Source of the DNA: an uncultured delta proteobacterium
GTDB lineage: Bacteria; Desulfobacterota; RBG-13-43-22
Direction: 5' to 3'
Length of the DNA stretch: 41,561 nt
Assembly: GCA_963790475.1 (NCBI GenBank)
Contig: CAWBOS010000004.1
Span: 1-41,561 of the forward strand
Shown: positions 9,828 through 36,295 of the stretch, one piece after another
Numbering within the stretch: position 1 is the first letter of the stretch
Layout of the letters: the number at the start of each line of letters is the position of its first letter
Position numbers and translations under genes: made by a program
The notes under the pieces: generated by a model
The model's database searches: none
Told to the model about the DNA's origin: nothing
The model's input: the letters and a program-made list of their open reading frames with translations, nothing else

Positions 9828-9929
9828 CGTCATGCCGGACTCGATCCGGCATCCAGAGGTTTGCGTGGTTTCTTCAGCCTGGATTCCGGCTGGAGTCTAT
9901 CCCGCACCTAACGCGGGACCGGAATGACG
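9828..9929. repeat. Palindromic repeat family A
   Basis: CGTCATGCCGG...CTGGATTCCGGCTGGAGTCTATCCCGCAC...GCGGGACCGGAATGACG; the 3' half is almost identical to 36202-36251 and to the reverse complement of 17639-17688. Confidence 0.85.
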
Positions 9930-10045: not shown

Positions 10046-10183
10046 GAGATTTGAAAAATGTTCAATTTTGTTCAAGATCAAGGAAGACGAAAATTTTAAC
10101 CAGAGGAATACTTTTAGTATTTTGAGGATTAAAATTTGAGTCTGACGCAGAGATTGGGCAAAAGGGGACATTTTTCAAATCTC
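10046..10183. mobile_element. MITE-like palindromic element, family B
   Basis: Perfect 16-bp terminal inverted repeat GAGATTTGAAAAATGT / ACATTTTTCAAATCTC; truncated second copy at 21612. Confidence 0.75.
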
Positions 10184-10736: not shown

Positions 10737-10783
10737 GGGTGACAGGATTAAATCTTTTTATTTTTTGCTTAATTTAGATGGCT

Positions 10784-10848
10784 GTCCAACCAAGAAATCA
10801 GCGGGAGGCCCGCTATTGGGGCGACCCGCTGACATTGACGGGTTGCTT
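10784..10848 (-). other. Integron attC-like site (last in array)
   Basis: Minus: AAGCAAC-CCGTC-AATGTCAGCGGG...CCCGCTGATT-TCTTG-GTTGGAC, downstream of the nitroreductase gene. Confidence 0.6.
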
Positions 10849-10925
10849 CTTCTACCGCCTCTAGAGTTCATAATCCTGCAGCTTTTGGGGATTTCCACAA
10901 TCTGATGAGCATCCTTCTGTCCACT

Positions 10926-11564
10926 TCACAGCCAACTTACTGATTTTGCCAATGTAGGATATTCGACGGCAGAAGGTTGGTAGTTGTCTGACGGATATCC
11001 CAGCGCGCATCCATCAAGGGCATATTCCTCTGTGGGAATATTCAAGAGTCTGCAAAAATCCGGGTCACCATCCATTTGCGTCGTTGCACTAACAAGTTGA
11101 AGGCCAATACCGAGTGACGTTGCTTTCAGCCACATATTCTGCAGGCAGTAGCTAAGTGATTGTGCGGCAATTGGAGGCATTCCTTTTCTTTCTCCGACAA
11201 CAACAAAATACGGTGCATTACCGACACCGGATACGCCTTGTTGTCCGATTCGCTTCATATTCTGCACAAAAGGAACAGGTCCCACCTTCTTTTCAAGTTC
11301 ATCGGCAACCGTTGCCATCCGCTTCTTGAGAATATTCGCTACGGCTTCCATAGCTGATGACGAGCTTCGAATCACGAATACCTTTCTAAAGTCAGGTTTC
11401 CCCGCAACTGCAAGTGCTCCAAAAGGGGCTAACAGGCCCGCTTGGATTATTGCTTCAATAGCCTCTTTTCCTGGCGGGATAGGGCTAAATACTCTTACTG
11501 AGTGCCGTGCTCTTACAATGACATCGAGAGCTGCAGTATGTTCGGAGGTGATGTTTTCAAACAT
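10926..11564 (-). CDS. Nitroreductase family protein (cassette gene)
   Basis: RHSVRVF, AGLLAP, LQNMWLKATSLGIG and ALGYP motifs; AGGAG RBS. Confidence 0.88.
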   Translation of the reverse strand: MFENITSEHTAALDVIVRARHSVRVFSPIPPGKEAIEAIIQAGLLAPFGALAVAGKPDFRKVFVIRSSSSAMEAVANILKKRMATVADELEKKVGPVPFVQNMKRIGQQGVSGVGNAPYFVVVGERKGMPPIAAQSLSYCLQNMWLKATSLGIGLQLVSATTQMDGDPDFCRLLNIPTEEYALDGCALGYPSDNYQPSAVEYPTLAKSVSWL

Positions 11565-11598
11565 GTTGTTCTCCTTTCATGTGTCATCTCTTGGCTAC

Positions 11599-11687
11599 GC
11601 CCAATGCGGCGTTGACCCGTGGCACGCAGGTTGCGGGGCCGAAGGCTATGCAAACAAGTGACATTGGGTCCAATGGCCTGGTTGGTG
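11599..11687 (-). other. attC-like site, repeat copy 1 (non-canonical ATT core)
   Basis: Minus: CACCAAC-CAGGC-CATTGGACCC...GGGTCAACG-CCGC-ATTGGGC; near-identical to 14025..14113. Confidence 0.6.
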
Positions 11688-11758
11688 CCGCTGCGGCGGC
11701 GCCGACCGGGACATGGACCCCATAGGGGGCAAAGCCGCATTGCCGACGACGCAGTCGG

Positions 11759-11830
11759 CGACAACGTTCAGGGTGTGGATTTCGACGGTCGCGCAGCGGA
11801 TGGCGAATACCCACCACCCTGTTGTTAGCC
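11759..11830 (-). other. Integron attC site of the GNAT cassette
   Basis: Minus: GGCTAAC (contains the stop codon)-AACAG-GGTGGTGG...CCACACC-CTGAAC-GTTGTCG; the L boxes pair with one extra base, as in canonical attC. Confidence 0.8.
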
Positions 11831-12337
11831 AGCCGCTTTGAATCCTAAGTGGAACTCAACGATTCCCTGGGGGATGTGTCCATCGAATGACATGGCAAAG
11901 AAGACGTCTTCCGGAACTCCCTCGTGGACAAGTCCCCGAGTGTTCTGGAATCCGAAACGCTTGTAGTACTCCGGATGCCCCACAAGGCAGCATCCCCGGG
12001 CACCAAGCCCTTTCAGCCGTGACAGTCCCTCTTGTATCAACGCCCCGCCAATCCCCTGCCGCTGGTATTCGGGCAGAACCGATACAGGCCCCAGTCCGTA
12101 CCAACCCGGAGAGCCGTCGGACATCGTCACCGGAGAAAACGCGATATGTCCAACTACGCGCCCATCCATCTCAGCCACGAGCGAAACAGTTAGGGCGTTG
12201 GAGGCGCGGAGCGCGGCAATGATGAACTGCTCCGTGTGATTGCTGATCGACAGAGTACTGAATGCGGCGATTGTGACGTCGGCAATGGTACCGACATCGG
12301 CATCGGTCTCACTCCTGATAACTATCCCGGTCCTCAT
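11825..12337 (-). CDS. GNAT N-acetyltransferase, YhbS-like (cassette gene)
   Basis: VVGHIAFS, LGPVSVLPEYQRQGIGGALI, VGHPEYYKRFGF; start at 12337 after a GAGAGGA RBS. Confidence 0.9.
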   Translation of the reverse strand: MRTGIVIRSETDADVGTIADVTIAAFSTLSISNHTEQFIIAALRASNALTVSLVAEMDGRVVGHIAFSPVTMSDGSPGWYGLGPVSVLPEYQRQGIGGALIQEGLSRLKGLGARGCCLVGHPEYYKRFGFQNTRGLVHEGVPEDVFFAMSFDGHIPQGIVEFHLGFKAAG

Positions 12338-12355
12338 GCGATTCCTCTCTTTATT

Positions 12356-12439
12356 GTCTAACGTGTTTGGCATGAGCGGCGGTCAAGGACCGCTCTTTAC
12401 GCAGATACTAACGCCGTCCGCTCGATGCCATTTTTAGCC
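12356..12439 (-). other. Integron attC site
   Basis: Minus: GGCTAAA-AATGG-CATCGAGCGG...CCGCTCATG-CCAAACAC-GTTAGAC; the L boxes pair with one extra base; R'' has AAA instead of AAC. Confidence 0.7.
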
Positions 12440-12607
12440 AGGAGCAGATGCCGGCTGAATCTCGAAAGACAGTGCTTTGCGCTTGGGATACAGACGCTTG
12501 ATGAGGGCGCCCAGGTCTTCTAGCGCAGCGCGCTGGTCCTCGATTGCGCCGTCAACTGATCCGTATAGACCGTCAATCAGCTGCTTCAGAATCACTACCT
12601 TGGCCAT
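12434..12607 (-). pseudogene. Probable 3' remnant of an unknown cassette gene
   Basis: Short ORF (AKVVILKQLIDGLY...SAPG) whose TAA lies in the R'' box of the attC at 12356-12439. Confidence 0.35.
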
Positions 12608-12689
12608 CGGCCGTACGGCTGGGCCGCCCCCTGGGTAGCCGATCAGCGGCATGCCGCGGCGGCTGTCTGGCTGGCCCTGAGCTGATCCG

Positions 12690-13085
12690 CTACTGCCAGC
12701 GATCGAGCGAGGCGATCTGGATCAGATTGCCGCAGGTGTCGTTCACCACCGCGATGGTCGAGCCGGTGACTTTGGTCGGCGGCATGGTGAACTCCGCGCC
12801 CGCCGCCTTCATCCGGTCGTATTCCCGCTGCACGTCGTCTACATAGAACATGGCGGCCGGCCGGCCCTGCTCGAACATCGCCTGCTGGTAGGCCTTAGCC
12901 GACGGGTTGTCATTCGGGGCGAGCTGCAGCTCGACGCCGTCGGGCTCCTCGGGTGAGGCTACGGTGAGCCATCGGAACGGCCCCTGGGTGACGTCGGCTT
13001 TCTTCACGAAGCCCAGGACATCGGTGTAGAAGCGCAGCGCTTTCTCCTGGTCGCCCACGTAGATGCTGGTCACTTTGATTTTCAT
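12690..13085 (-). CDS. VOC/glyoxalase family protein
   Basis: IYVGDQEKALRFYTDVLGF, WLTV, FYVDDV, DTCGNLIQI; visibly more GC-rich than its neighbours. Confidence 0.9.
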   Translation of the reverse strand: MKIKVTSIYVGDQEKALRFYTDVLGFVKKADVTQGPFRWLTVASPEEPDGVELQLAPNDNPSAKAYQQAMFEQGRPAAMFYVDDVQREYDRMKAAGAEFTMPPTKVTGSTIAVVNDTCGNLIQIASLDRWQ

Positions 13086-13202
13086 GGTGCTTTCTTCCTG
13101 TCATATCGGTTCGGTGTGGTTCGTCACTATGAATGTTTTTCGAGAGTGTTGAGCTGCATGCCGAGTGCCGTTTGTGCCTGGATCAGCACTGAGTACCTCG
13201 AA

Positions 13203-13424
13203 TTATCGTCGAATTGTTTCCTTTCCTTCGGTATGAGAAACCGTCACAAGGCGACCTTTCGCAGAAACACCAAAAGTAATAAAACGTTCTTCATAAATTG
13301 AATGATCGGGATCGAGACCGGTTGCAGCCATAGGGTCACTCAATGCGGTGGCTGCTTCCTCAAAAGAAACCCCATGCTTCTTAAAGTTGTTTTTTGCCTT
13401 CCTCGGGTCCCATTCGATTTTCAT
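13203..13424 (-). pseudogene. BrnT-family toxin, C-terminally truncated, no brnA
   Basis: EWDPRKAKNNFKKHGVSFEEA, EERFITFG; ends at IRR instead of the usual IRIISAR. Confidence 0.75.
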
Positions 13425-13437
13425 GTTCCAGATTATA

Positions 13438-13707
13438 TCATGTTCTTGGAATCATGTCTCGATAGTAATTCTCGTGAGGCCCAATCATAACAAACTCCAA
13501 ATCATCGCCAACCCTTCGATAGGATAGCAAATGGATTGTTTTGAGTTTGAATTTGTGTACGGAAACGCCTCTCAAGTCACCCTTCTTTTCTTCGCTTACG
13601 CCGGGGTCTTCTGCTATTTTCTTTATTTCTCTATCCAGTGAATCCTTTTCGGACTTTGACATCCTCTTTACTTTTTTCTCAAATGACCTTGACTGGTAAA
13701 TTCTCAT
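13438..13707 (-). CDS. RelE/ParE-family toxin
   Basis: EEKKGDLRGV.VHKFK...IGPHENYYRD signature; extreme C-terminus possibly replaced. Confidence 0.8.
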   Translation of the reverse strand: MRIYQSRSFEKKVKRMSKSEKDSLDREIKKIAEDPGVSEEKKGDLRGVSVHKFKLKTIHLLSYRRVGDDLEFVMIGPHENYYRDMIPRT

Positions 13708-13713
13708 ATCTAA

Positions 13714-13932
13714 CTATCCAAACTTATATTCGGTCTTCTCGTTCTCATCCAACTCGTCCAACCCAATCAGGATTTCCTTTATGAGGGAATATGGCAAGTC
13801 AGGATTCTCTTCTGCGCATTTGCCCATGCGTGCCCAATGCTCAATCTGACCGGCCAAAGACCTGTGATCGATCCGCCCAAATCTTTTTGCCTCACTTACA
13901 AGTTTTTCAGATATTCTTACTGCTGTGGCCAT
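13714..13932 (-). CDS. ParD-like antitoxin
   Basis: HRSLAGQIEHWARMGKCAEENPDLPYSLIKEIL; GGAGG RBS; directly upstream of the toxin. Confidence 0.85.
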   Translation of the reverse strand: MATAVRISEKLVSEAKRFGRIDHRSLAGQIEHWARMGKCAEENPDLPYSLIKEILIGLDELDENEKTEYKFG

Positions 13933-14024
13933 GGAAGTTCCTCCAAACGGTAATGTTACAATATGCTATCATTTTATATTAAAGCGTAGCATAATGCAAC
14001 AATAGATTGCTCATTCATTCTGAG

Positions 14025-14113
14025 GGGTAATGCGGCGTTGACCCATGGCACGCAGGTTGCGGGGCCGAAGGCCATGCAAGCAAGTGACATCGGGTCCAAT
14101 GGCCTTGTTGGTG
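14025..14113 (-). other. attC-like site, repeat copy 2 (non-canonical ATT core)
   Basis: Minus: CACCAAC-AAGGC-CATTGGACCC...GGGTCAACG-CCGC-ATTACCC. Confidence 0.6.
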
Positions 14114-14321
14114 CCGCCTGCGGAGGCGACAACCAGTTATTGAGGAGTTTCTTTATAAGTATCAAGAAGTTTTGAGTTGTCAATGTCAGTACTGAAATGC
14201 CATCTCATATCTCTTTAATATCATTATTTTTCGACAGTTTTCCAATATCCCATTTATTTTCTTAAGATCTTCTGTTCAAGTCAGGTGTCTCACAGTCCTC
14301 ATCATCTTTGAGAAAAATCCC

Positions 14322-14385: not shown

Positions 14386-14586
14386 GTGAGAACTAACATC
14401 ATCATTGATGATCTTCTTTTGGAAGAGGCTTTTTCCGTCAGCCAGAGCAAAACCAAGAAAGAGATCATTCATGAGGCCTTGAGGGAAATGATCCGGTTAA
14501 GGAAAAGGAAAGACTTAACCGAACTGGCCGGACGTATCTCTTTTTATCCGGGTTTTAGCCATAAGACTTTAAGGAAAACCGGATGA
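14386..14586 (+). CDS. VapB-family antitoxin
   Basis: MRTNIIIDDLLLEEA...TKKEIIHEALRE pattern; GTG start after AGGGGAG. Confidence 0.85.
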   Translation: MRTNIIIDDLLLEEAFSVSQSKTKKEIIHEALREMIRLRKRKDLTELAGRISFYPGFSHKTLRKTG

Positions 14587-17562: not shown

Positions 17563-17868
17563 CCAAACACCCAAGAGAAGTATTCGTTGCCTTTCTCTCT
17601 TTATATGGACTCATAAAAGTCGCCAGAACTCGAGGAATGTCATTCCGGTCCCTCATCAAGTGCGGGATAGACTCCAGCCGGAATCCAGTGTCATAAATTG
17701 GTTATATTTATCCTGGACCCCGGCTTTCGCCGGGGTGACGACTTTTTACAAGTTTGTCTTTTTTATTTGACTTCTAACAGGAAGTAAAAGAAAAGCAACC
17801 GGAAATTGTAGACCATTATCTGAAAATTTTTTTATTCTGGATTCTGAATTCTGACTCCTGTATTCTGT
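17529..17868. repeat. Inverted heptamer arrays (GAGTCAG/AATCCAG ... CTGGATT/CTGACTC) enclosing a family A element
   Basis: ggagtcagaatccaggagtcagaagccagaa at about 17530-17559 and ttctggattctgaattctgactcctgtattctg at about 17835-17867. Confidence 0.75.
17608..17753. repeat. Family A element inside an outer ACTC..AAAAGTC / GACTTTTT.C.AGT inverted repeat
   Basis: Reverse-orientation counterpart of 36137..36282. Confidence 0.8.
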
Positions 17869-21611: not shown

Positions 21612-21673
21612 GAGACCTTTGAAAAATGTTCAATTTTGTCCAAGGTCAAGGAAGACGAAAATTTTAACCATAG
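21612..21673. mobile_element. Truncated left half of a family B element
   Basis: TTTGAAAAATGTTCAATTTTGT.CAAG.TCAAGGAAGACGAAAATTTTAACCA matches 10050-10108. Confidence 0.75.
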
Positions 21674-21683
21674 GGTGAGTACT

Positions 21684-36118: not shown

Positions 36119-36295
36119 TGCGGGTTACGAGTGATGGACTCGCAAAAAATCGTCACCCCGGCCAAAGCCGGGGTCCAGGAGATCAAAACTACTTAAAATC
36201 ACTGGATTCCGGCTGGAGTCTATCCCGCACTCGATGCGGGACCGGAATGACTAATGCGGGTTTCGGTGACTTTTTGCGAGTTGCGGGTTGCGGGT
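36119..36295. repeat. Family A element with outer inverted repeat (36137..36282) nested in a TGCGGGT heptamer array
   Basis: tgcgggttacgagt-gatggACTCGCAAAAA...[family A]...TTTTTGCGAGT-tgcgggttgcgggt. Confidence 0.8.

Follow-up and report, generated by a model that had tools for sequence, protein, structure and literature searches.

The two near-identical repeats in the window (the whole stretch of 41,561 nucleotides that was analysed) are probably each a complete gene-less integron cassette of one family, here called E, which consists almost only of its own attC-type site. This reading is directly supported by the anatomy of the elements, their position in an array, both junctions, the conservation of an ATT triplet and the reuse of downstream cassettes behind canonical G↓TT sites. 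A preliminary description of this DNA had taken the repeats for attC-type sites in a cassette array with the minus strand as top strand, and this is supported by our analysis. The element does not appear to be the attC of a neighbouring gene, but a whole cassette that starts at the G↓TT of a canonical attC or attI-type site.

Twin elements in an integrase-less array

The resemblance of the stretches 11603-11707 and 14029-14134, on which the preliminary description was built, was found again by three routes: pairwise alignment gave 92% identity, a repeat finder gave an ungapped match of 89 nt at 94%, and in a search of the window's own genome 14029-14134 matched the first repeat (copy A) at 92% with E=2.2e-36. 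The exact 13-mer GCGGCGTTGACCC is present at 11606 and 14032 only; thus the likeness of the twins goes far beyond chance. On the minus strand copies A and B both close on GGGTCAAC-GCCGC-ATT and then part, with GGGC in copy A and ACCC in copy B, exactly as first noticed. Two measures had to be revised. Between the L' box (GGTCAAC) and ATT lie 5 nt (GCCGC) and not 4 nt, and the element is not confined to about 105 bp: in comparison with 38 other E members the homology of copy A, a long form of 160 nt, continues to 11764, and the 105 bp common to the twins therefore lack part of the whole element.

Table 1. Features of the cassette array and of the two E copies
Feature	Position	Strand	Remarks
attI-type site with promoter-like TTGACA box	14133..14260	-	ends ...CAATAACTGG; crossover between 14133 and 14132
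E copy B, short form, gene-less cassette, 102 nt	14031..14132	-	TTGTCGCC... through ...GGGTCAAC GCCGC A
Copy B inner R'' CACCAAC	14107-14113		plus strand GTTGGTG
Copy B R' box ATTACCC	14031-14025	-	
parD-parE cassette	13438..14030	-	opens TTACCCC at 14030; Pfam
ParD-like	13714-13932	-	Pfam
ParE-like	13438-13707	-	Pfam
brnT toxin gene with own promoter-like site	13203..13460	-	gene 13203-13424; promoter-like site 13460-13432
Glyoxalase-family gene and 72-aa ORF	12434..13085	-	12690-13085 and 12434-12652; no intervening attC
Canonical attC	12356..12439	-	R'' GGCTAAA over stop codon; R' GTTAGAC; crossover between 12362 and 12361; read from sequence
GNAT acetyltransferase cassette gene	11825..12337	-	Pfam; start 12337 read from sequence
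Canonical attC of GNAT cassette	11759..11830	-	R'' GGCTAAC over stop codon; R' GTTGTCG; crossover between 11765 and 11764
E copy A, long form, gene-less cassette, 160 nt	11605..11764	-	
Copy A 5' hairpin H3	11764-11740	-	
Copy A outer R'' CGGCAAT	11739-11745		plus-strand coordinates; hairpin H2 comes next
Copy A inner R'' CACCAAC	11681-11687		plus-strand coordinates
Copy A L'' arm	11658-11674		
Copy A L' GGGTCAAC	11611-11618		
Copy A spacer GCCGC	11606-11610		final A at 11605
Copy A R' box ATTGGGC	11605-11599		
Nitroreductase cassette	10926..11604	-	opens TTGGGC at 11604; gene 10926-11564; Pfam
Canonical attC of nitroreductase cassette	10783..10848	-	R' GTTGGAC; array end; queH converges from left

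The array lies on the minus strand and holds three canonical attC sites with GTT and two E sites within 10783-14132 (Table 1); brnT is joined to parE with no attC between them. No integrase gene adjoins the attI-type site, next to which vapB at 14386 (plus strand) and then hypF stand instead of intI (Pfam). A cluster of attC sites lacking an integron integrase has been termed CALIN (Cury et al. 2016, PMC4889954), and with at least two attC sites and no integron integrase nearby the array of the window is a CALIN. The integrase is missing from the genome as well, where none was found above the model cut-off (best 105 bits against a cut-off of 265), and present activity in this host is therefore doubtful. 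Compared with CALINs as set out in the available text of PMC4889954, the array still has an attI-type site and a promoter at its head; compared with a complete integron, i. e. intI beside attI and array, it has the attI-type flank and lacks intI. Within the host's taxonomic family, 6 of 21 genomes encode an integron integrase above the cut-off. In the integrase-bearing loci examined no assembled E copy adjoins intI, with five of the six contigs stopping 0.3-2 kb past it, and a fold-based attC finder found no array at the intI locus of genome G009.

A genome without an integron integrase would also suit an alternative in which E is a fossil, i. e. an attC-only cassette that a G-to-A change inactivated and that, instead of recombining at its own A↓TT, multiplied or persisted by duplication, by homologous recombination or as a hitch-hiker of neighbouring cassettes. 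Integrase-less arrays may be decaying, as the available text of PMC4889954 has it, and with IntI1 a change of the first G in one partner only lowers recombination 1000- to 10000-fold, i. e. by 3-4 orders of magnitude (PMC2811028, available text). We nevertheless regard a fossil as unlikely, on account of how E is distributed and of what lies at its ends.

Family E and its junctions

Of 20 genomes searched in the host's taxonomic family 19 contain E, and a search of 20 other families of the phylum found it in none of them. Among 72 distinct copies, which are related by descent so that their counts do not equal independent events, the R' triplet is ATT in 57, ATC in 4, GTT in 3 and a single variant in 8. 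The 57 ATT copies are spread over 17 genomes and 4 genera, and the three GTT copies sit singly among them in the tree; thus ATT is the normal state of the family. The preliminary description had named GTT in other copies as an observation that would count against a variant class of attC. Such copies do exist, yet being scattered in this way they leave the variant class standing. A state held throughout the family does not look like inactivation, and neither does the conservation of at least 90% at the L' box, spacer and ATT columns of the alignment.

The attC consensus is RYYYAAC/GTTRRRY. E departs from the conserved pair of AAC in R'' and GTT in R' on one side: the inner R'' is canonical (CACCAAC), the R' is mostly ATT, and the outer R'' of the long forms is AAT. 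A pattern scan of the genome contigs with GGGTCAACGCCGCNTT returned at least 120 loci. Among the matches listed three are true E by profile; the remaining ones among these were rejected as chance 15-mer matches, so that the scan provides no wider census of ATT against GTT. Two motif-plus-inverted-repeat attC finders, used for a count of first bases, gave no signal above the reversed-sequence control.

At its 5' end E starts at the G↓TT of the preceding site, which is a canonical attC for copy A and the attI-type site for copy B. Full-length copies lie downstream of a 55-75-nt canonical attC or an attI-type site, and the base preceding TTGGCGCC in 15 of them is G in 12, A in 1 and T in 2. Nine of 64 copies follow an attI-type flank (BLAST). 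They are first in their arrays, at the place of recent insertions, which again argues against a fossil. The same type of flank adjoins an integron-integrase gene, divergent from it, in G019:C17 (L064), the contig of which breaks off there with ...ATATTG↓T, and it precedes non-E cassettes in G011:C70 and G000:C10:1654916.

At the 3' end E closes with A↓TT, after which an RRRY-like flank follows. In 57 copies, whose flanks are otherwise unrelated, the four bases after ATT are R in 50, R in 44, R in 40 and Y in 44 (p = 5e-5, 0.02, 0.19 and 3e-10, respectively, against a purine background of 0.64). Three of the downstream cassettes were met again behind canonical sites. The cassette downstream of copy B (TTACCCCTCAGAATGAAT...) follows ...CTACCCG↓TTACCCTCAAAATTAAT, a canonical attC, in G001:C179, where the homologous parD-parE cassette opens at the same TTACCC as in the window; the cassettes downstream of the E copies of G016 and G019 sit after canonical ...G↓TT at G000:C12:869239 and G000:C15:132457. 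In all three the homology begins at TT. These three independent cassettes lend comparative support to a crossover at A↓TT. The view that this is the crossover-equivalent position, put forward for the twins, is supported, and the position is conserved in 57 of 72 copies. The diversity of the downstream contexts (57 different ones, with an RRRY-like flank) and the sharing of cassettes with canonical sites exactly from TT on would be hard to explain for a fossil.

Since E starts at the G↓TT of the preceding site and ends at A↓TT, it can be regarded as a complete ORF-less cassette, running from the TT after one crossover through the first base of its own R' box, with ends that would restore a paired R box on circularisation. 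No ORF overlapping E had a Pfam match, and the alignment of the copies shows scattered single-base indels.

The same ends bear on a further alternative, a non-integron mobile repeat of the MITE or REP type that is moved by another recombinase or transposase and happens to target attC and attI cores. The long form does carry 16-nt terminal inverted repeats, many other tyrosine recombinases are encoded in the genome, and a cluster of three tyrosine recombinase genes stands some 2 kb away from one diverged E copy. However, there is no target-site duplication, the ends obey the cassette rule (G upstream, A with the element, TT opening the next unit), the layout of boxes is that of attC, and an unsystematic look across the loci noticed no consistently linked recombinase gene. 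We therefore hold such a repeat to be extremely improbable.

Contigs of other metagenomes depart from the window at exactly 11603 (4 contigs from 2 runs), and one metatranscriptome contig departs at 11762. No contig skipping E was seen among the public contigs compared, which carry no information on strand or transcript ends. Contigs from RNA libraries cover parts of the region; this is no demonstration of transcription. Relatives of the nitroreductase cassette in G008 were set aside as junction evidence: their homology starts only at the ribosome-binding region, in other contexts, and hence says nothing about the junction. The junctions at L119, L108 and L114 were too diverged to read. The partner site at G000:C13:214107 itself ends A↓TT.

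Folding of the element

The plus strand, which is the bottom strand of the array, folds better than the top strand, as is usual for attC sites. For 177 nt the predicted energy is -54.6 kcal/mol (z -5.05, equalled by none of 200 shuffles), as against -40.8 kcal/mol (z -1.58) for the minus strand; reduced to minimal sites of 92-94 nt, copy A folds no better than shuffles (z 0.43). The imperfect inverted repeats L'' and L' form a stem. Its 15 pairs are paired in 91.6% of cells over 57 copies, compared with 27-44% after shifting the 3' partners along the entire structure tested, and one of them is compensatory (A-U in 35, C-G in 13 copies). Hairpin H2 has 84% of cells paired, and the 5' end of E pairs with the R'' region as H3/H2. 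At the exchange base the R-box pair is U.G in 52 and C-G in 5 of the 57 copies and never unpaired. Because the constant core keeps the canonical inner R'' (AAC), the folded plus strand has a T.G wobble at the exchanged base.

For copy A and L029 the predicted minimal site comprises an R box, a small internal loop and a bulged L box. The central spacer is predicted to be partly paired, as a 2x2 internal loop and a 3-bp helix, and the bulged bases appear to depart from the classical attC pattern of extrahelical bases on the R''/L'' arm of the bottom strand and an unpaired central spacer: in the consensus two bases of the plus-strand 3' arm are unpaired, one of which is missing in copies A and B. 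The preliminary description had placed several substitutions at bulges or in G.T pairs of the plus strand. This is true only in part: copy A shows G.T at alignment pairs 23-73 and 42-55, and copy B shows A.C at pair 23-73 and G.A at pairs 100-108 and 94-113. Over the family the minority pairs G.T and A.C, counted in columns with Watson-Crick as the commonest pair, number 33 and 34 in the L box, 22 and 9 in the terminal hairpin and 42 and 21 in hairpin H2, which means no strand bias of substitutions in the L box and a moderate one in the other two.

Being strongly structured, and often located between the promoter-bearing attI-type flank and the first gene, E could alternatively act on RNA, as a cis-acting leader or small RNA module (regulatory 5' UTR, attenuator or antisense RNA) of the downstream cassette or array transcript that is no recombination site at all. 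Yet the strand that folds better runs antisense to the genes of the cassettes, a promoter scan found no promoter-like site inside E on either strand, and no Rfam family matches at E. Furthermore, downstream cassettes exist without E from the same TT, and the 5' end of E coincides with a canonical G↓TT. A role as RNA module is thus quite improbable.

Comparison with known sites and possible mode of exchange

The layout of E as a gene-less cassette is as follows. The top (minus) strand opens with TT, directly behind the G with which the G↓TT of the preceding site starts, and continues with a self-paired leader, which measures 19 nt in short-form and about 75 nt in long-form copies. The constant core then consists, in this order, of R'' CACCAAC, 7 nt of spacer, the L'' arm, a terminal hairpin of about 30 nt, L' GGGTCAAC, GCCGC and the final A; TT and the RRRY-like bases that finish the R' box are property of the next cassette. 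For the exchange a scheme can be proposed. In the folding bottom (plus) strand the base 3' of the presumed cleavage point in the R box would be T, not C, and is expected to form a T.G wobble pair with the canonical G that the inner R'' provides. Cleavage by an integron integrase would take place at AA↓T. A C arriving from a canonical partner would then form a perfect pair with the inner R'' G, and the outgoing T would dock by wobble on the G of the partner. After replication A would remain with E and G with the upstream site, which is the pattern observed. That an integrase still performs the A↓TT reaction, and with what efficiency, we only infer.

Going further, E may be a self-propagating gene-less 'parasite' of the integron system, which uses a T.G wobble in place of the supposedly invariant G/C. 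The half-changed R box would keep up exchange with canonical G-type attI and attC sites, and exchange of E with E (A with A) would form a semi-private network moving blocks of several cassettes, for example the 2.4-kb block between the twins. We offer this as a tentative idea, which has somewhat more against it than for it.

According to PMC2811028, all integron sites characterised share the GTT/AAC triplet, and conservation of the attC triplet is also stated in PMC4889954, each in the text available to us. From the work on IntI1 a site with an altered first base would be expected to lose its normal partners. In the same study (Frumerie et al. 2009, PMC2811028, available text) G-to-A substrates were still cleaved in vitro, and the same base in both partners fully restored recombination. 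The engineered attC and attI sites share with E the A in place of G at the crossover base. However, they were altered on both sides of the R box (ATT with AAT), whereas E keeps the canonical G on the R'' side, is natural and adjoins G-type sites; the available text of that study does not report the half-changed state with a wobble. In the literature searched, as far as its text was available, we found no description of natural attC sites with an ATT core. A natural multi-copy lineage of A-type attC beside G-type sites is a ready-made test of how strict the GTT rule is in other integrases, and E points to a half-changed solution by wobble.

ORF-less cassettes, gene-free and bounded by recombination sites like E, are known from an oral metagenome (PMC6557892) and from Vibrionaceae superintegrons (10.1101/2023.11.21.568050). 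Going by the available text of these two sources they were reported for promoter activity, whereas E has no promoter-like site; its 102-160 nt are nearly all recombination site and self-paired leader, and it is multi-copy in four genera. E shows that a cassette is reducible to the recombination site alone. Detectors of attC trained on GTT sites may miss or mis-bound E-like sites, and cassette counts in these lineages could therefore be off.

With canonical attC sites (59-base elements) E has in common a variable terminal hairpin flanked by paired R and L boxes, the better folding of the bottom strand, and the position at cassette boundaries in one orientation, where the first base stays upstream and TT opens the next cassette. 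It differs from them by A for G at the first base of R' in most copies, the wobble at the exchanged base, the spacer predicted as partly paired, the apparently non-classical bulged bases and the lack of a gene. The VCRs of Vibrio are long homogeneous attC repeats of sedentary chromosomal integrons, exceeding 100 nt, with a complex terminal structure and GTT, and end gene-bearing cassettes. E resembles them as an attC type that is conserved and specific to its lineage, exceeds 100 nt and has a complex terminal structure; in contrast to VCRs, which sit on gene-bearing cassettes and carry GTT, E stands alone between canonical short attC sites.

Twin elements and the family they belong to

The twin elements reported in the preliminary description are present: 11603-11707 and 14029-14134 align with 92% identity, and a repeat finder gave 94% over an ungapped stretch of 89 nt between the two copies, A and B. 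On the minus strand both end in GGGTCAAC GCCGC ATT and then diverge, into GGGC... in copy A and ACCC... in copy B, as described there. All neighbouring genes are on the minus strand and represent cargo typical of cassettes, with G+C contents from 0.68 to 0.40. Three GTT-type attC sites are likewise read on the minus strand. Thus the minus strand is the top strand of the array and the plus strand its bottom strand, as had been assumed.

Features of the cassette array around copies A and B
Feature	Position	Strand	Remark
Nitroreductase gene	10926-11564	minus	
GNAT acetyltransferase gene	11825-12337	minus	
72-aa ORF and glyoxalase-family gene	12434-13085	minus	
BrnT gene	13203-13424	minus	
ParE-like and ParD-like genes	13438-13932	minus	
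Ordinary attC	about 10848-10783	minus	R' GTTGGAC
Ordinary attC of the GNAT cassette	11830-11759	minus	R'' GGCTAAC over GNAT stop codon; R' GTTGTCG
Ordinary attC	12439-12356	minus	R' GTTAGAC; read from sequence
attI-type site before copy B	14133-14260	minus	ends ...CAATAACTGG

The genome that holds the window comprises 6.34 Mb in 20 contigs and has no integron integrase; the top TIGR02249 match scores 105 bits, below the cut-off of 265, and the middle part of the model is missing from it. Thus the array is a CALIN, an attC cluster without integron integrase. CALINs and the conservation of the attC triplet are already described in the consulted part of PMC4889954.

The elements belong to a family, E, with about 12 copies in the window's genome, several of them paired at a spacing of 0.8-2.4 kb. 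Within the host's taxonomic family (four genera), 19 of the 20 other genomes searched contain a match; among 20 genomes that each represent a different further family of the phylum, none does. Of the 21 genomes of the host's family, six encode an integron integrase that scores above the cut-off. At least three public records, labelled Syntrophobacteraceae, delta proteobacterium and Pseudomonadota MAGs, hold true E copies. Rfam at gathering thresholds matched nothing at E; the sole match in the window is a tRNA (443-525).

We derived the extent of E by aligning 39 distinct copies. Copy A proves to be a long form, extending to 11764. Read on the plus strand, long forms begin with AAT GCGGC GTTGACCC and a bulged hairpin, followed by H2, a hairpin rich in G+C, then a stretch complementary to the left end and a third hairpin (H3) closing in ...GCGCCAAC, beyond which the copies diverge. 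Medium forms lack the outer R''-like box, and short forms such as copy B end directly after H2. All forms share, on the top strand, R'' CACCAAC, 7 nt of spacer and the L'' arm; the terminal hairpin comes next and is followed by L' GGGTCAAC, then GCCGC and a final A.

Because its 5' end (TTGGCGCC) is complementary to its own R'' region, ORFs over it match no Pfam family, single-base indels are dispersed across the alignment and a promoter scan found no promoter-like site within it, E appears to be a complete gene-less cassette, of 160 nt in copy A (11764-11605) and 102 nt in copy B (14132-14031). Pairing of the 5' end with R'' accounts for hairpins H3/H2 in the integrated state, and a fully paired R box would be rebuilt in the circle. 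The parts consulted of PMC6557892 and 10.1101/2023.11.21.568050 already report gene-less cassettes, mainly for promoter activity.

Two further observations concern the array genes. The gap between parE and brnT, which has no adjoining brnA partner gene, is 13 nt and holds no attC; homology of parDE relatives stops at 13452, 14 nt ahead of the parE stop, that of brnT-segment relatives starts at 13444-13458, and positions 13460-13432 hold a promoter-like site, GAGACA-17-TATAAT with TG. The nitroreductase gene has close relatives (84-88%) 4-5 times within one related genome (G008: C14, C22, C23, C30; L094-L097). Three of these copies have nearly identical flanks on both sides, pointing to a repeated mobile unit and not to a cassette.

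Ends of E and position of the crossover

We compared 72 distinct E copies from the window's genome and loci of relatives, which are not a census of all E matches. The triplet after GGGTCAAC GCCGC is ATT in 57 copies, from 17 genomes, ATC in four, GTT in three and a single variant in eight. The four bases past ATT follow the R' consensus in mutually unrelated flanks: purines in 50, 44 and 40 and a pyrimidine in 44 of the 57 copies (p = 5e-5, 0.02, 0.19 and 3e-10 in base order, against a purine background of 0.64). The preliminary description had regarded GTT in other copies, or shared sequence beyond ATT, as speaking against an ATT core; the flanks are indeed unrelated and ATT prevails, but the three GTT copies do not fit. 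A tree of 57 copies, itself poorly resolved, places each of these alone among ATT copies, and one is nearly identical to two ATT copies of the same genome. This scatter argues that ATT is the normal state of the family and not a decay product of single copies.

The 300 nt downstream of all 72 copies were screened against all sequences compared here; five matches started at most 5 bases from the junction, and seven cases were inspected. The cassette with parDE that follows copy B opens with TTACCC and has the same start behind ...CTACCCG in a relative (G001:C179). The cassettes following copies in the relatives G016 and G019 start TTATGC and TTAATAAC, and occur in the window's own genome (G000) behind ...TTTTTCG (C12:869239) and ...GTGCAACG (C15:132457), respectively. 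For a fourth cassette the partner site, at G000:C13:214107, is an attC of another kind, outside E, that itself ends ...GGCGGCA|TT; in three other cases divergence at the junction is too high for reading. The three clean cases indicate that the final A of E takes the place of the canonical G and that TT opens the next cassette, which bears out the earlier proposal of a crossover at A|TT instead of G|TT. Among public metagenome contigs, four from two runs part from the window precisely at 11603 and one does so at 11762; none of those compared with the window skips E.

At the 5' end, copy A starts TTGTCGCC directly after the G of the R' box of the GNAT attC (crossover 11765|11764). The base preceding TTGGCGCC in full-length copies is G in 12 of 15, A in one and T in two, and upstream lies a canonical attC of 55-75 nt or an attI-type site. 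By BLAST, attI-type flanks precede 9 of 64 E copies; in two of the nine the flank is of a second type, located by the integrases of G001, G002 and G004. In G019:C17 the flank found before copy B adjoins an integrase gene in divergent orientation and reaches the end of the contig with ...ATATTG|T; it also precedes non-E cassettes (G011:C70, G000:C10:1654916). At G000:C10:1796994-1797450 an attI-type site lies upstream of an E copy with no adjoining integrase gene; its promoter region is that of the intI-linked loci of G001, G002 and G004.

Two non-E attC sites also end at A|TT: that at G000:C13:214107 (...GGCTGAATGGCGGCA|TTATGC) and one upstream of the E copy at L034:811 in G005:C28 (...GCTGAGCCGTACA|TTGGCGCC). 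Thus the A-for-G core may extend beyond E within the host's bacterial family.

Predicted structure and a probable recombination route

Folding of both strands favoured the plus strand: for 177 nt of copy A it gave -54.6 kcal/mol (z -5.05), a value reached by none of 200 shuffles, versus -40.8 kcal/mol (z -1.58) for the minus strand, and 121-nt pieces showed the same difference. In the minimal site of copy A and of one G016 copy, the R box is predicted to be separated by a small internal loop and a 3-bp helix from an L box with bulges; for copy A this fold was no better than shuffles (z 0.43).

In an alignment of 57 copies, 91.6% of cells are paired in the L-box helix, where one pair is compensatory (A-U 35, C-G 13). 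The corresponding share is about 90% in the hairpin stems of E and 84% in H2, which also shows switches from U.G to U-A and to C-G. The exchanged base of the R box is always paired, as U.G in 52 copies and as C-G in five; the two A-U pairs of the R box are kept in 53 and 52 copies, and the first two flank bases are paired in 48 and 42. Substitutions show a moderate strand bias, with minority G.T versus A.C counts of 22/9 for the terminal hairpin and 42/21 for H2; the L box, at 33/34, has no bias.

A likely interpretation is that the folded plus strand is cut between A and T of AAT. Since the constant R'' side of E retains G, the incoming C of a canonical partner would pair perfectly, and the T of E would dock as a wobble on the partner's G. 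After replication of the recombinant bottom strand, E would retain A and the upstream site G. This is the pattern found at both ends of E; we infer that an integrase would carry out the reaction.

According to the sections compared of Frumerie et al. (PMC2811028), IntI1 accepts any first base that is the same in both partners, altering one of them alone causes a 1000- to 10000-fold loss, and cleavage of G-to-A substrates persists. In those mutants both sides of the folded R box were changed, whereas E is half-changed, a state for which these sections hold no result. The off-site insertion consensus GWT, in the part consulted of Loot et al. (10.1101/2022.09.11.507474), again stresses G. E would be attC-like in behaviour and obeys the cassette junction rule of attC sites, but departs from their conserved triplet. 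Literature searches, with subscription journals and supplements outside their scope, found no paper on natural ATT-core attC sites.

In the assembled intI loci of relatives no E copy adjoins intI; all but one of the six contigs stop 0.3-2 kb upstream of or past it, and these ends look as if repeats break the assembly there. The integron-integrase frames of relatives (L070, L073, L074, L058-L062, L064) measure 389-524 aa against a 315-position model, indicating a long N-terminal extension.

Other repeats and recombinase genes

Two intergenic repeat families occur in the window, one at 9879-9928, 17639-17703 and 36187-36251, the other at 1747-1774, 17711-17753 and 36138-36180. Their members are 28-65 nt long, 88-96% alike and found in either orientation, each with a short G+C-rich hairpin. 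There are also a 57-nt direct repeat (95%; 10050-10106 and 21618-21674) and a pair of inverted repeats of 29-33 nt around segments of ~130 nt (15006-15038/15172-15200 and 20258-20290/20499-20527). Elsewhere in the window's genome, three adjacent tyrosine-recombinase genes lie at each of C10:824457-826020, C13:39964-41528 and C13:166296-167859; a diverged E copy (C10:827893) is found ~2 kb from the first of these clusters.
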